Source: a virus
Direction: 5' to 3' (one strand)
DNA: 64,000 bases
Virus record (IMG/VR): IMGVR_UViG_3300028393_000001
Location: 32,001 to 96,000 of that record
Of the stretch, positions 22,996 through 33,981 are shown piece after piece (position 1 is the stretch's first letter; each line of letters opens with the position of its first letter). Position numbers and translations under genes: made by a program. The notes beneath the pieces were generated by a model. It worked only from the letters and a program-made list of their open reading frames with translations, was not told where the DNA came from and did no database searches.

Positions 22996-23322
22996 ATGCC
23001 GCTAACTAAACCACAACCTTACACCGAGGAAGATACCACTACTATAGTTAGTAGGTATCGAGCAGGTGAAACAACGGAAACTATAGCTGAGAGTACTGGT
23101 AGGTCTCACCGATCTATTATTGCAAAACTTTCACGAGAAGGCGTATATGTTTCTAAAACGAAACCTCCGTCAACAAAGGCCACTAAAGTGGAGCTTATAA
23201 CACATATTGCAGAGATGGTAAATATTGATGTCAACGCGATCGCTACCTTAGAGAAGGCAACACATGATGCCTTACAAGAATTACACGATGCAATTCAAAT
23301 TCTTGCAAAGCAGGCAAAATAA
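22996..23322 (+). CDS. A2-like DNA-binding protein, paralog 5
   Basis: RSIIAKLSREGVY and TLEKAT motifs. Confidence 0.7.
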   Translation: MPLTKPQPYTEEDTTTIVSRYRAGETTETIAESTGRSHRSIIAKLSREGVYVSKTKPPSTKATKVELITHIAEMVNIDVNAIATLEKATHDALQELHDAIQILAKQAK

Positions 23323-23376
23323 AGCATAAAAAATTTATATTTGACTTTGAGTCCTCAATCCGGTATAATTTATTTA

Positions 23377-23504
23377 TAAACAGTCGGGAAGCCGATATGC
23401 ACAGGGGGTGCAATTAGCGTTTGTCAACGACACCTTCGACCACTACTCAGGCATTGTATAGGCCTACATCTGCGAAGTTAAGTCATAGTGGCAACGACTG
23501 TTTA
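23377..23504 (+). ncRNA. Helix-closed structured RNA
   Basis: Starts right after TTGACT-17-TATAAT (23341-23369); closing helix TAAACAGTCG/CGACTGTTTA. Confidence 0.6.
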
Positions 23505-23547
23505 ATTTTTTACTTGAATTATATAGTGTTTTACTGTATAATTGATA

Positions 23548-23639
23548 TTTATAAGGGTGGAAAGCGGATGCAATTCACGGCACGCTTCCTTAATTGTGGC
23601 GAATAACTTATCCGAGCCACAGCCCAAAGCCCTCATAAA
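23548..23639 (+). ncRNA. Helix-closed structured RNA
   Basis: After promoter 23514-23542; TTTATAAGGGT/GCCCTCATAAA closing helix with two inner stems. Confidence 0.5.
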
Positions 23640-23640
23640 C

Positions 23641-23766
23641 AAAAGTTCAGACAGTTCTAGACTGGCCGGATTAGCAACTGTGCGTAGATAACCCACGACT
23701 AGTAGTGCTCGGCCGAGCACCGAAAGCGTCCATGCTACGACATTGTTAATAGTTTGCTGAACTTTT
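23641..23766 (+). ncRNA. Helix-closed structured RNA
   Basis: AAAAGTTCAG/CTGAACTTTT closing helix; inner GTGCTC-GGCC-GAGCAC hairpin. Confidence 0.55.
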
Positions 23767-23856
23767 CTTTATGGGTGTTATGTGTTCCCCGCCCATGATA
23801 GGGAGTAACAACTTAATTGCAGGCGAAATCACTACCTGTAGCCCACCGTAATCTTT

Positions 23857-23931
23857 GCTCGATTCGTCTATCGGTTAGGACACCAGCCTTTCACGTTGGT
23901 AAGACCGGTTCGATTCCGGTATCGAGTACCA
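23857..23931 (+). tRNA. tRNA-Glu(TTC)
   Basis: Cloverleaf, CCA end. Confidence 0.95.
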
Positions 23932-24075
23932 AATTTCTATGTTGTTCTAGTTTGCTAGAGCACTTAGACACCCAAGATCAGACCAACAGTTAGTAATGAT
24001 AGATTATTTATAATCCGTCGAAACCTGCGGTGGCGTAACAACTGACTGAACTAGGCTGTCGCCTTGACCTAGTTC

Positions 24076-24224
24076 CTATTATTTAGTGTTATCAGGGTAT
24101 CGTCATAGGACGCTATGACTATGCGGGCCTAACTGTGCGAGGAACAGGTCCTAATATAACTGCTAGTCGCTTGCCAGAGGAAGCACCTTTGTTGGCAAAT
24201 TGGCACGATAGCACTAAATAATGG
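24076..24224 (+). ncRNA. Helix-closed structured RNA
   Basis: 18-bp closing helix 24076-24093/24207-24224 with several inner stems. Confidence 0.65.
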
Positions 24225-24227
24225 TAG

Positions 24228-24378
24228 AGAGTTAATGTTAAAAATGGGTACTCAAAATATCCGTTCTTGAAGGTTCAATTCCTTTAATTTGTAGTCAGGT
24301 GAGAAGCGTGGGCAAAGGTTAGAGATCAACTAACCGCTACAGATAATATGGTTATTAAGTAATAAAAACATAGACTCG
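24228..24378 (+). ncRNA. Structured RNA with T-loop-like hairpin
   Basis: AAGG-TTCAATT-CCTT; ends pair imperfectly. Confidence 0.45.
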
Positions 24379-24474
24379 CCATATATTAGCATTCTGTAAT
24401 TCAAGAGGCAGAGAAGCCCTTTAATATGGGGTGTCGTGTAGATTTCAAGTATCTACCAGAGTGCTAATATATGG
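24379..24474 (+). ncRNA. tRNA-like cloverleaf on an 18-bp extended acceptor helix, no CCA
   Basis: D-like arm, GCCCT-TTAATAT-GGGGT arm and GTAGAT-TTCAAGT-ATCTAC arm. Confidence 0.6.
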
Positions 24475-24555
24475 GAGAGTACGGGTGATATGTAAGGGTT
24501 TCTCTAAGCCCTGATGATTGGAATTCCTAAGTTAGCCAACAACTAACCCCATAAC

Positions 24556-24659
24556 TTATCCTTCTGATGAGCTTGTGAAATTCAAGCGAAACTCTAACAC
24601 AACCCGCTAGGGTCTTACCCTTTCAACCTAGTTTGAGGCGTTACGAGTCAAGGAATAAA
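24556..24659 (+). ncRNA. Type I hammerhead ribozyme
   Basis: Stem I TCCTT/AAGGA, CTGATGA 24564-24570, stem II GCTTG/CAAGC, GAAA 24588-24591, stem III CTC/GAG, GTC cleavage triplet 24647-24649. Confidence 0.88.
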
Positions 24660-24716
24660 AAAGATAGCCGTGTTGCCACTTATAGTATTGCGTCGCCGCT
24701 GGAACTAATTCCTCTT

Positions 24717-24752
24717 AGCCCTGTAAGGTTTGCCCTTACAGGGCTTTGCTTT
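24717..24752 (+). terminator. Terminator of the ncRNA operon
   Basis: AGCCCTGTAAGG/CCTTACAGGGCT plus T-rich tail. Confidence 0.8.
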
Positions 24753-24836
24753 CACTAAAATATGTTACCATAAAAATTTTAGCTGTTGACATAAGATGCC
24801 ATAACTGGTATAATAAGGCAAAATAAAGGTCTACCA

Positions 24837-25031
24837 ATGAGTTCTTCTTATACCTATGTCAAAGAGTTAGAGTTATTAATTTTGGATAAATTACTTCCTG
24901 TTTATGAAAAGCACCAGAAGTCTCAAGGAGTAATAAGCCCCTTTCAGGGTATTAATCAAGATTTATTATCTCAGATAAAAGCAAAGAAAAAACTCCCTGC
25001 GCTCCTTAGGGCTAAGGAAAAACACACTTGA
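24837..25031 (+). CDS. Hypothetical protein
   Basis: Follows TTGACA-16-TATAAT. Confidence 0.6.
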   Translation: MSSSYTYVKELELLILDKLLPVYEKHQKSQGVISPFQGINQDLLSQIKAKKKLPALLRAKEKHT

Positions 25032-25765: not shown

Positions 25766-26779
25766 GTGGCTATGTTTAATCAAAATCAAAAACGCGTTGG
25801 CTTTGCGTGTAAAATTCAAAGCCAAGAATCTACAGATTTAGCCAGTTGTAAGACCAAAGGTACTACAATTACATGGCTAAATAGCCAAACTAAACAAGCA
25901 GCCGCAGAGCGACTGTGGACCTTAATGCAAACTAATATAGCAGCCCTTAGTGCACAAGCAGATTGGGTAGCACAGCAACCACCAGGTTTGCGAATGTTTC
26001 GCCTAAGCAGCGACTTACTAACTGCATACTCTCACGATGACTGGATGTGGTTTTACTTTCAATCAGATGTAGTAGACTTCTTAGAACGGAATCTACTAAA
26101 AATCGGTGATAAGTTCCGTGCAGCAGATGTACGTGTTAGCTTTCATCCAGGTCAGTTCTGTGTCTTAGCATCAGATAATCCAGGTGTAGTTGAAAATTCA
26201 ATTACCGAGTTCGAGTACCATGCCGACCTTATCAGGTACATGGGCTATGGTAAAAAGTTTCAAGACTTTAAATGTAATGTACACATTGGCGGTAAACAAG
26301 GCCCCAAAGGTATTATCTCAGCCCTACAACGACTAACACCCGAGGCCCGTAATTGTTTAACTATTGAGAACGCAGAGTTTACCTGGGGTTTAGATGCCTC
26401 ATTAGAACTAGTAGACCACTGTGCCTTAGTCCTAGACATTCATCACCACTGGATTCATTCAGGAGAGTATATTAACCCAGAGGATAGTCGTGTTAAACGA
26501 ATTCAAGAATCTTGGCGCGGTGTCAGACCAGTTATCCACTATTCAGTTAGTAGGGAGGACGTACTCCCAGATCATTGTGGACGAACACGGCCTGACCTCC
26601 GAGAGCTTAAATCAATGGGATTTACAGCAGCTAAACTCCGAGCACACTCAGAGTTCTACTGGAATCAAGATGTAAATCAGTGGGCTACCACTTTCCTAGA
26701 CCACGCCGACATTATGTGCGAGTCTAAGCAGAAAAATACTGCCTCTGAACAGTTTGCCAAAGAAGTAGGTCATGTATAA
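25766..26779 (+). CDS. uvsE: UV damage endonuclease
   Basis: GFAC, MFRLSS, SFHPGQFCVL.S, TIEN, LDIHHH and IMCESK motifs. Confidence 0.92.
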   Translation: MAMFNQNQKRVGFACKIQSQESTDLASCKTKGTTITWLNSQTKQAAAERLWTLMQTNIAALSAQADWVAQQPPGLRMFRLSSDLLTAYSHDDWMWFYFQSDVVDFLERNLLKIGDKFRAADVRVSFHPGQFCVLASDNPGVVENSITEFEYHADLIRYMGYGKKFQDFKCNVHIGGKQGPKGIISALQRLTPEARNCLTIENAEFTWGLDASLELVDHCALVLDIHHHWIHSGEYINPEDSRVKRIQESWRGVRPVIHYSVSREDVLPDHCGRTRPDLRELKSMGFTAAKLRAHSEFYWNQDVNQWATTFLDHADIMCESKQKNTASEQFAKEVGHV

Positions 26780-27564: not shown

Positions 27565-27653
27565 GGAGACGTGTGCCGAATTGGTTGAAGGCAAGGGACT
27601 GTAAATCCCCCACATAAGAAACGCTGTAGGTTCGAGTCCTACCGGCTCCACCA
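27565..27653 (+). tRNA. tRNA-Tyr(GTA)
   Basis: Cloverleaf with long variable region, CCA end. Confidence 0.92.
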
Positions 27654-30461: not shown

Positions 30462-30536
30462 AGCCGTGTAGCTCAGAGGAAGAGCAAACGCTTGATAAGC
30501 GTTAGGTCGACATCTCGGAATTGTCCATGGCTACCA
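30462..30536 (+). tRNA. tRNA-Ile(GAT), atypical T-loop
   Basis: Cloverleaf; T-loop CTCGGAA. Confidence 0.85.
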
Positions 30537-31281: not shown

Positions 31282-31378
31282 AAATACACTACTTGCCACT
31301 TAATAAATATATGCGGAGACGTTCCGGACTGTGTCATTCCGCGGGTAACTGGGAGCACCCAGCATAGGTAGTGTGTTT
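31282..31378 (+). ncRNA. Helix-closed structured RNA
   Basis: AAATACACTACTT/AGGTAGTGTGTTT closing helix. Confidence 0.55.
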
Positions 31379-31386
31379 TTTATTTT

Positions 31387-31680
31387 ATAGTTGTATGAAG
31401 TAGACAGAAAAGTGTCTTGGACGGGGGTGCGAATCCCCCCAGGTCCACCAGAAGTATATTCGACCTCACACGCGGAGAGGTGAAATATAACAGAATATAC
31501 TTCTGATGGGCCTGCATAGTTTCGACAGGGCAAAGAGTAGGAAAATGGACAACTCGGTAGGCGATGACCGTTAATCAAGCAAAACAAGTAAACGCAAACG
31601 ACTCACAGTTCGCATTAGCAGCCTAAACACTGCTTAGGGTTTTGATAAGTTTTCCTCGTAACAGAATAAACTTATCTCAA
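31387..31680 (+). ncRNA. ssrA: Circularly permuted two-piece tmRNA, tag (A)ANDSQFALAA
   Basis: 3' acceptor piece ends CAGGTCCACCA at 31450; 5' GGGCCTG at 31508 gives G3:U70; tag frame 31594-31626. Confidence 0.93.
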
Positions 31681-32185: not shown

Positions 32186-32275
32186 AAGATAATGCAGCGG
32201 GGTTGGTCCTGCGACTGGCCTTGAAAACCAGGTTCTCTTAACAGGGATGGGGTTCGACTCCTCTGTCTTCCGCCA
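32184..32275 (+). tRNA. tRNA-Ser(TGA)
   Basis: Long variable arm, CCA end. Confidence 0.88.
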
Positions 32276-33759: not shown

Positions 33760-33981
33760 TTTTGTTAAAGTGTTAGCAAGAGAAATCACGCTGATTAGTA
33801 TTCTTCGAAGGTACTAATCAGTAGAAAGTTGCGGGTTCGATTCCCGACTTATCGCCGTTTACGGTGGAGGTATACAGGGGCGTATCAACTGGATGAATCC
33901 CAAGTAACGTACCGAGACCTTGCCGGCCTTGTATAATAAGGTGAATGGTTCCGATAATATGGGTGGAACTACTTTAACAAA
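33760..33981 (+). ncRNA. ~220-nt structured RNA with T-loop hairpin
   Basis: TTTGTTAAAGT/ACTTTAACAAA closing helix; CTGATTAGTA/TACTAATCAG stem; CGGG-TTCGATT-CCCG. Confidence 0.7.

Follow-up and report, generated by a model that had tools for sequence, protein, structure and literature searches.

Between positions 23341 and 24752 of the window, by which we mean the whole 64,000-nucleotide (nt) stretch of phage DNA analysed here (bases 32001-96000 of the 123,962-bp viral record IMGVR_UViG_3300028393_000001, with direct terminal repeats on record), two promoters and one terminator enclose a tRNA-Glu, a type I hammerhead and ten RNA modules unrelated to one another in sequence (U1-U10), all on the + strand. 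On balance, we read this block as a promoter-to-terminator array of independent small stable RNA genes around the tRNA-Glu, of the same class as the 'stable RNAs' of phage T5. Nine of its parts (U1, U2, U4, U5, U6, U7, U8, U9 and the hammerhead) are backed by compensatory changes in alignments with related uncultured phages, while support for U3 is weak and for U10 there is none. The RNA families are new to Rfam; their kind, stable RNAs in phage tRNA clusters, is already annotated in T5. An earlier note on this DNA had described a string of helix-closed RNAs and suggested collecting homologues to look for covariation in their interiors, and it is from such relatives, gathered via two flanking proteins and motif scans and cited below by L numbers, that the compensatory changes in the nine parts come.

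The phage itself, a lake phage, is a distant T5 relative, and its DNA polymerase shares 49% identity with the polymerases of T5-like Vibrio phages, pVp-1 among them. Its size, its terminal repeats and its large early tRNA region are also compatible with a distant T5-type phage. ARAGORN finds 23 tRNAs and one transfer-messenger RNA (tmRNA) between 23.8 and 37.1 kb of the window, to which Rfam adds two further tRNA matches, calling the tmRNA permuted.

Structured modules between promoters and terminator

The first promoter, P1 (TTGACT-17-TATAAT, 23341-23369), matches the consensus at 11 of 12 positions and has a counterpart in the same relative place in L011 (4273-4302) and L028 (2365-2394). Its start site, at ~23376-23377, is likely the first base of the closing helix of U1. 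The second, P2 (TTGAAT-17-TATAAT, 23514-23542; 10/12), has likewise kept its position (L011 4447-4475, L028 2539-2567), with a start site at ~23549 that is likely the start of U2. An intrinsic terminator at 24717-24745, a GC-rich 12-bp stem followed by a T-run, closes the block, and a further promoter with a 12/12 match lies downstream of it at 24786. The two promoters and the terminator that were first described as enclosing the block are thus confirmed at 23341, 23514 and 24717. So is the lack of a credible open reading frame (ORF). The longest ORFs, 61 amino acids (aa) on the + strand and 72 aa on the - strand, are no longer than shuffling gives (n=200; the longest ORF averages 77 aa and reaches at least 72 aa in 59% of shuffled blocks), and none is conserved in length, the 61-aa frame being reduced to 35 aa in L011 and L028. 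The block is non-coding.

The tRNA-Glu (UUC), at 23857-23931 and with an encoded CCA, is called by ARAGORN and scores 55.2 bits with the Rfam tRNA model. It is also the only element that passes in a search of 23200-24900 against Rfam 15 at E ≤10, in which the hammerhead and two terminator-like chance matches reach E 0.54-6.6, and the only one matched when the block is compared by blastn with 50,697 cultured-phage records; eight related loci searched against Rfam at E ≤1 give only tRNAs. Known families, which a scan had been proposed to look for, do not account for all the units. As the earlier note stated, the units differ in sequence: sequence comparison finds no paralogues and no mutual similarity among them, either within the block or in the rest of the genome.

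U6 (24076-24224) and U8 (24379-24474) are each closed by an uninterrupted 18-bp helix. Among 200 dinucleotide shuffles a single one contains any helix of at least 18 bp, and the longest helices in seven coding segments matched in length are only 10-13 bp, so that the two 18-bp helices are beyond chance. Their folds are also far more stable than those of shuffled sequences (z -5.98 for U6 and -6.48 for U8).

U6 is supported by comparison as well. This 149-nt RNA, defined by covariation and by a covariance model (R2), carries three inner hairpins within its closing stem (18-21 bp in the family), has an invariant single-stranded stretch (UCCURAUAUAACUGC) and is single-copy. Compensatory changes affect 15 of 47 pairs in an alignment of six sequences and 31 of 40 pairs in one of 25, which leaves out L008, L026, L082 (identical to L056), the partial L093 and 10 later matches. 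A variant in RNA run X20 adds three compensatory pairs in hairpin 1, where 24104/24117, 24105/24116 and 24108/24113 change together. Searching viral DNA for the 15-base pattern (at least 117 stretches) and filtering 115 new loci with R2 gives matches at a minimum of 33 viral loci besides the window (23/78 and 10/37 among the matches listed), on contigs of 5-345 kb, with scores of 54-155 bits and E values of 1e-10 to 1e-34; the 166 bits of the window are circular, as R2 was built from the window and its near relatives. The other 82 of the 115 pattern-bearing loci, which have no R2 match among those listed, were rejected as U6. On the reverse strand the model scores 23 bits, against 166 forward, and G-U pairs are retained in the helices (e.g. 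in 23 of 25 sequences at one pair), which together point to RNA-level selection on the + strand. U6 has no match in Rfam, in the T5 region (model R2) or among the 50,697 cultured-phage records (blastn with the window block and two other members).

The surroundings of U6 were surveyed at 31 full-length loci, which represent 28 distinct sequences (three identical pairs). At 27 loci the retrieved DNA includes a tRNA upstream of U6, and the nearest one is a tRNA-Glu in 14 cases. At nine loci the model overlaps the last 4-5 bases of that tRNA-Glu, so that its CCA end is paired into the closing helix. At 19 of 29 loci no more than 10 nt separate U6 from the start of the following tRNA. In the window, U6 lies 144 nt past the tRNA-Glu, with U5 in between, and touches no tRNA. 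U6 is thus a widespread RNA family of phage tRNA arrays, linked to tRNA-Glu and absent from Rfam. The gap to the tRNA that follows is usually 2-8 nt, and that tRNA is often one for Asp, Tyr or Lys (e.g. L084:2567-2790, L103:271-492, L090:2772-2992). One U6-bearing array, on a 225-kb viral contig, also contains an ARAGORN tRNA with the amber-reading anticodon CUA, labelled Pyl (L083:1637-1715).

The hammerhead (24556-24658) is of type I, with an open stem I. Stem I pairs 24559-24563 with 24650-24654 and is followed by the core CUGAUGA (24564-24570), stem II (24571-24587) and GAAA (24588-24591); the GUC triplet at 24647-24649 places the predicted cut at 24649|24650, and stem III holds an insert of ~45 nt that forms a helix of its own and in which a CCUUUC loop is conserved. 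In six aligned sequences (duplicates, the partial L027 and L122 left out), 92.8% of cells are paired, against 20-47% in slid controls, with stems I and II 100% and stem III 89.6% paired. Seven compensatory pairs are spread over all three stems and the helix of the insert. The core, GAAA and GUC are invariant in all six, save the permitted N7 (U or C). The Rfam score of 15.8 bits (E 6.6) is far below the gathering threshold of 48.5 bits, a low value that we attribute to the stem III insert, which is absent from the model. The complete core is conserved, and self-cleavage is predicted from it. Three other loci (L011:4902-5912, L028:2981-3912 and L020:1076-2192) have the same hammerhead behind its own promoter, and there it precedes a conserved, ORF-free RNA of 0.8-1.0 kb that runs to a terminator and has conserved blocks with no Rfam match. 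Cleavage at these loci would trim the long RNA at its 5' end. The window has no such long RNA downstream, and its hammerhead separates U9 from a tail of ~100 nt.

U5 (23974-24076), a pseudoknotted motif defined by an alignment of 10 copies, consists of two hairpins: one is irregular and made up of UCAG/CUGA, ACC/GGU and a tip that varies, and the other has a loop, CGCC, that pairs with an upstream GGCG. With L010, which has the same sequence here, and the partial L029 set aside, paired cells make up 94.6% of the alignment, against 21-44% in slid controls. Six pairs show compensatory changes. The pseudoknot is among them, reading GGCA/UGCC in L030 and L038, and so is UCAA/UUGA, present in each of the two L023 copies. 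Most relatives have a terminal helix; the U5 of the window is without the outer AUGGG/CCCAU helix. Covariance model R1 finds U5 only once in the window and not at all in T5 or in 100 further tRNA-array loci. A scan of genome contigs for the loop motif gave seven stretches, six of them without wider similarity to U5; only L045, a 103-kb contig of a metagenome-assembled genome, holds a real U5.

Remaining modules and their shuffling among relatives

U8 (24379-24474) can be described as a tRNA-like cloverleaf, with D-like, anticodon-like and T-like arms, on its 18-bp stalk. The U8 sequences of L010 and L039 fold as four-arm cloverleaves (z -4.04 and -6.45) with a T-like loop UUCAAGU or UUCGAGU; the minimum-energy fold of the window's U8 leaves the D-like hairpin open. 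By eye, the alignment shows compensatory changes that keep pairing in the stalk as well as in the T arm and the anticodon-like (third) arm. The adjoining U7 (24229-24378), a 150-nt RNA closed by 5+5 bp (z -3.51), has within its closing helix an anticodon-arm-like hairpin (loop CUCAAAA), a T-arm-like hairpin (GAAGG-UUCAAUU-CCUUU) and an insert. Its T-loop motif, GTTCAATTC, lies at 24273; GTTCRANTC has 27 matches in the window against 2.4 expected. A short U7 in L045 keeps both loops while its closing helix changes from GAGU/ACUC to UAGU/ACUA, giving one or two compensatory pairs by eye, and folds no better than shuffles (z +1.14). Neither U7 nor U8 is called as a tRNA by ARAGORN or matches the Rfam tRNA model at E ≤10. 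U8 is without a CCA end, and U7 without an acceptor stem and D arm.

U9 (24475-24545; z +0.15 for 24475-24560), aligned for the window, L008 and L010, comprises two hairpins without a closing helix. In hairpin 1 one pair reads A-U, G-U or G-C, and in hairpin 2 GUUAG/CUAAC becomes GCUAG/CUAGC (both by eye). U10 (24650-24752) is the ~100-nt tail 3' of the hammerhead cut, ends in the terminator, has a fold z of -3.48 and is restricted to the L008 and L010 groups. By eye, 20/23 bases of U10 agree with the 3' end of L028's large RNA, a similarity that nhmmer missed and that we do not claim.

Upstream of the tRNA-Glu, U1 (23377-23512) is an RNA of ~130 nt in which a 10-bp closing helix (23377-23504; z -1.15) is followed by a T-run; it may form a separate transcript. 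Conserved copies are present in L008, L011, L026/L028 and L122. Two of 23 predicted pairs are compensatory in an alignment of four sequences; by eye, its first hairpin reads GCAC/GUGC, GAAC/GUUC or GGCAU/AUGCC by lineage, while the closing helix is invariant across the aligned lineages. U2 (23548-23639; 92 nt, z -1.97) also has a terminal helix; its first hairpin varies, and its UGUGG/CCACA hairpin is conserved. It is matched by nhmmer in L008 and L026/L028, and two of 11 predicted pairs are compensatory (four sequences). U3 (23641-23766; 126 nt, 10-bp closing helix, z -3.28) is the least supported large unit and is found only in the 90%-identical L008 group. Four changes fall on pairs of the two-sequence consensus, all to or from G-U, with none broken and none compensatory; on the window's own minimum-energy fold, four of six changes at paired positions break pairs. 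U4 (23770-23856), a structured leader of two hairpins within a 5-bp closing helix (UGGGU/GCCCA, 23772-23776/23841-23845; z +0.29 for 23770-23850), has six compensatory pairs out of 14 predicted (four sequences) and immediately precedes the tRNA-Glu in the window, L008, L011 and L028.

The description of the block as back-to-back helix-closed units therefore needs some correction. Terminal helices are present where they had been listed, with the exception of the unit placed at ~23985-24076, which is U5, starts at ~23974 and has none here. The listed units are all present; the two-hairpin U9 had been omitted, and the hammerhead, named without its extent, spans 24556-24658.

How the modules are distributed among relatives is a separate line of evidence that they are distinct. 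The L008 group, 90-98% identical to the window, has 187 extra nt exactly at the U7/U8 border, and the L010 group is without exactly 24227-24379, which is U7. The L011 and L026/L028/L122 groups, ~74% identical, have the order P1-U1-P2-U2-U6-U4-tRNA-Glu, followed by a promoter P3, the hammerhead and the long RNA, and L020 retains only the tRNA-Glu, the promoter, the hammerhead and the long RNA. In L039, U5 adjoins U8 elsewhere in the tRNA region, and in L045 U5 is followed by the short U7. The borders of these rearrangements coincide with helix ends: modules are gained, lost and re-ordered as whole cassettes among related phages. Turnover of this kind between close relatives is what one would expect if the functions are accessory and the selection on them changes. 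The extra sequence in L008 (L008:1546-1742) is flanked by a 7-bp direct repeat, TCGCCAT, and has a fold z of -0.11; the same form is present in RNA-library contigs of runs X20 and X21.

Some neighbouring features deserve mention. Just downstream of the array, a 337-aa ORF (25766-26779) matches the phage endonuclease family phrog_8420 (E 1e-73), and upstream of it a 108-aa ORF (22996-23322) has a weak match to D5-like transcriptional regulators. The tmRNA (31336-31679) scores 136.8 bits with the permuted model of Rfam and 116.9 bits with the betaproteobacterial one, with the tag ANDSQFALAA; tmRNAs are also present in the tRNA arrays of L080 and L111. The two Rfam tRNA matches without an ARAGORN call lie at 27565-27650 and 30462-30533 (46.0 and 48.6 bits). 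T-loop motifs (GTTCGANTC) occur outside called tRNAs at 32252-32260 and 33835-33843, suggesting that there are probably more tRNA-like modules within the main tRNA cluster.

Expression, possible roles and rival explanations

If the block works as an array of stable RNA genes, P1 would make U1, and P2 a single precursor that begins with U2 and extends as far as the terminator. This precursor would be split when RNase P and the enzymes that trim tRNA 3' ends excise the tRNA-Glu, and the hammerhead would cut it again at 24649|24650. The 18-bp helices of U6 and U8 could act as processing stalks like those of rRNA, being targets for RNase III and blocks to exonucleases. With long terminal helices acting in this way, the modules would build up as separate RNAs, each with its two ends paired. 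The earlier note had proposed a polycistronic array of distinct non-coding RNAs released by processing. Covariation, the cassettes and the U6 family bear out the distinct RNA genes. The transcription unit and the processing we only infer, the former from where the promoters and the terminator lie, an arrangement that L011 and L028 share, the latter from a tRNA that needs excision, the hammerhead and the terminal helices.

Public sequencing data extend the comparison. Parts of the block are held by 24 public runs, six of which are RNA libraries, and contigs from four of these (X19-X22) cover U1-U2 and U3-U7 of close relatives. As these contigs carry no information on ends, strand or relative level and may include DNA, and as gaps in their coverage have no meaning, they served only as a source of sequence variants.

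Several observations weigh against an array of discrete stable RNAs. Helices of at least 9 bp are not enriched (19 in the block versus 18.7 in shuffles), so that the short closing helices are at chance frequency and rest on comparative evidence and not on counts. U4, U9 and the window's U5 fold no better than shuffles, and U3 and U10 have no compensatory changes. One RNA-library contig extends upstream of P1, and the discrete RNAs themselves are something we infer, their ends and strand not being visible in assembled contigs. The genome offers no pointer to a pathway, having no RtcB, Ro/TROVE or CCA-adding enzyme. Neither blastn nor models R1 and R2 detect homology to the named T5 RNAs, which makes 'same class' an analogy of place and form. 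Finally, substitutions between the window and L008, scored on single-sequence minimum-energy folds, mostly break pairs, which counts against the interiors as folded. We regard this count as unreliable, given that the register is displaced by indels and that comparison leads to folds other than the minimum-energy ones. A global fold of 23377-24752 was set aside, its long-range pairs being spurious.

As to function, the decoys or sponges suggested in the earlier note would be a putative role. Our leading guess, a tentative one, is that the modules act in trans as mimics of tRNA parts and so engage the host's tRNA-binding, tRNA-modifying or tRNA-cutting enzymes; U7 and U8 would be such mimics, perhaps along with U6 and its tRNA-Glu. 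A more ambitious proposal, which we put forward as speculation with rather modest prospects, is that the block is an RNA-only island for counter-defence or takeover of translation. Its cassettes would then be nuclease-resistant mimics of different host RNAs (an anticodon arm and T-arm in U7, a non-chargeable tRNA body in U8, a tRNA-Glu partner in U6), swapped among phages like anti-defence genes, and U5, whose junctions are invariant and which has a pseudoknot, might be an undescribed ribozyme or ligand-binding RNA.

The main rival is a purely cis-acting processing role, in which the modules are scaffolds that steer transcription, folding and processing of the tRNA-Glu or of neighbouring tRNAs and have no role once released. 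The constant position of U4 directly 5' of the tRNA-Glu fits this explanation, as do the usual place of U6 elsewhere, filling the gap between tRNA-Glu and the next tRNA with its closing helix pairing the CCA end, and the resemblance of the closing helices to rRNA processing stalks. It would nevertheless mean that 1.3 kb are spent on one tRNA, for which U5-U10, all 3' of it, are dispensable in L011, L028 and L020. The invariant unpaired stretches in U6 and U5 and the pseudoknot exceed what a stalk needs, the window's U6 touches no tRNA and U1 has its own promoter, and we consider this alternative unlikely. If the RNAs were mere processing scaffolds, the finding would be an ordinary one.

Could the block be one large structured RNA acting as a whole, as T5 RNAX, GOLLD and ROOL might suggest? 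RNAX, at 719 nt, embeds a tRNA-like element, and the hammerhead of L011, L028 and L020 stands at the front of 0.8-1.0 kb of conserved RNA without ORFs. This is very unlikely for the window, where P2 splits off U1 and the global fold contains no supported long-range pairing. Modules are found apart and in other orders, U6 stands alone between tRNAs in 31 loci, and there is no GOLLD or ROOL match in Rfam at E ≤10.

The tRNA-like arms of U7 and U8, and the presence of U3 and U10 only in relatives that are 90-98% identical, would also be expected of a graveyard of decayed tRNA genes and spacers, kept only through the closeness of the relatives. Compensatory changes at 70-75% identity in U1, U2, U4, U6 and the hammerhead, together with conservation of U6 across 28 distinct sequences on contigs of 5 to 345 kb, make this highly improbable. 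Least credible of all are mobile elements resembling miniature inverted-repeat transposable elements, with terminal inverted repeats that merely look like RNA helices: the 18-bp repeats, the presence or absence of units as wholes and the direct repeat TCGCCAT around the 187-nt extra of L008 would suit them, yet every unit is single-copy in the genome, the arms covary and keep G-U pairs (non-complementary as DNA), the interiors are conserved and structured, and no transposase is nearby.

Comparison with known RNAs

In rRNA operons, a long helix formed by both ends brackets each mature RNA within the polycistronic transcript and serves as a stalk for RNase III. The modules differ in that the cargo is an RNA of 60-110 nt, and cleavage of the 18-bp helices by RNase III is proposed by analogy. 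GOLLD and ROOL are phage or prophage RNAs found near tRNAs, and YrlA, a bacterial Y RNA, has a tRNA-like module on a long stem. The block has no match to any of these in Rfam at E ≤10 and the genome no Ro/TROVE protein, and as the modules are separable there is no single large fold as in GOLLD and ROOL.

The hammerhead shares its core, three stems and GUC with the known hammerheads (clan CL00010) and departs from them in its stem III insert. Hammerheads that process long phage transcripts have been proposed by Perreault et al. (2011; PMC3088659). Compared with the known phage hammerheads, the ribozyme described here lies inside an array of non-coding RNAs and not between protein genes.

The closest parallels are in the tRNA clusters of other phages. 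The species 1 and 2 RNAs of T4 (rnaC and rnaD) are small stable RNAs of the tRNA cluster, co-transcribed and co-processed with tRNAs and with no assigned function; T4 belongs to a different phage family from this T5-like phage. To our knowledge, the stable RNAs of the T4 and T5 tRNA clusters have been known for decades, none of them with a function, and our literature search found no publication on the function of those of T5. Deletions in the T5 tRNA region are the subject of Glukhov et al. (2018), as cited in PMC11464382.

In the T5 record (NC_005859), rnaI, rnaIII, rnaIV, rna1, rna2, rna2H, rna3 and rnaX are annotated in the tRNA region as 'stable RNA with unknown functions'. They are 73-172 nt long, except for RNAX (719 nt). 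A terminal helix is present in six of the seven that were folded, and RNA1 and RNA2 have T-arms. RNAX (L042:14849-15567) also contains an Rfam tRNA match of 38.3 bits, above the gathering score, that is not annotated as a tRNA. Like our modules, these RNAs are non-coding, lie in the tRNA region of a T5-type genome and have early, sigma-70-type promoters, and some stand back to back (RNAIII-RNAI-RNA1 beside tRNA-His). Since the T5 record already has such a block of RNAs, the array is less unprecedented than the earlier note implies. Rfam detects no hammerhead in the T5 region at E ≤1. What sets the present block apart is that ten modules and a tRNA follow each other without an intervening ORF, with a hammerhead among them and with cassettes that are shuffled among relatives. 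It offers a compact set of at least nine comparatively supported structures from a class of phage RNAs without assigned function, including the U6 family of dozens of uncultured phages, the pseudoknotted U5, two tRNA-like RNAs and the hammerhead.

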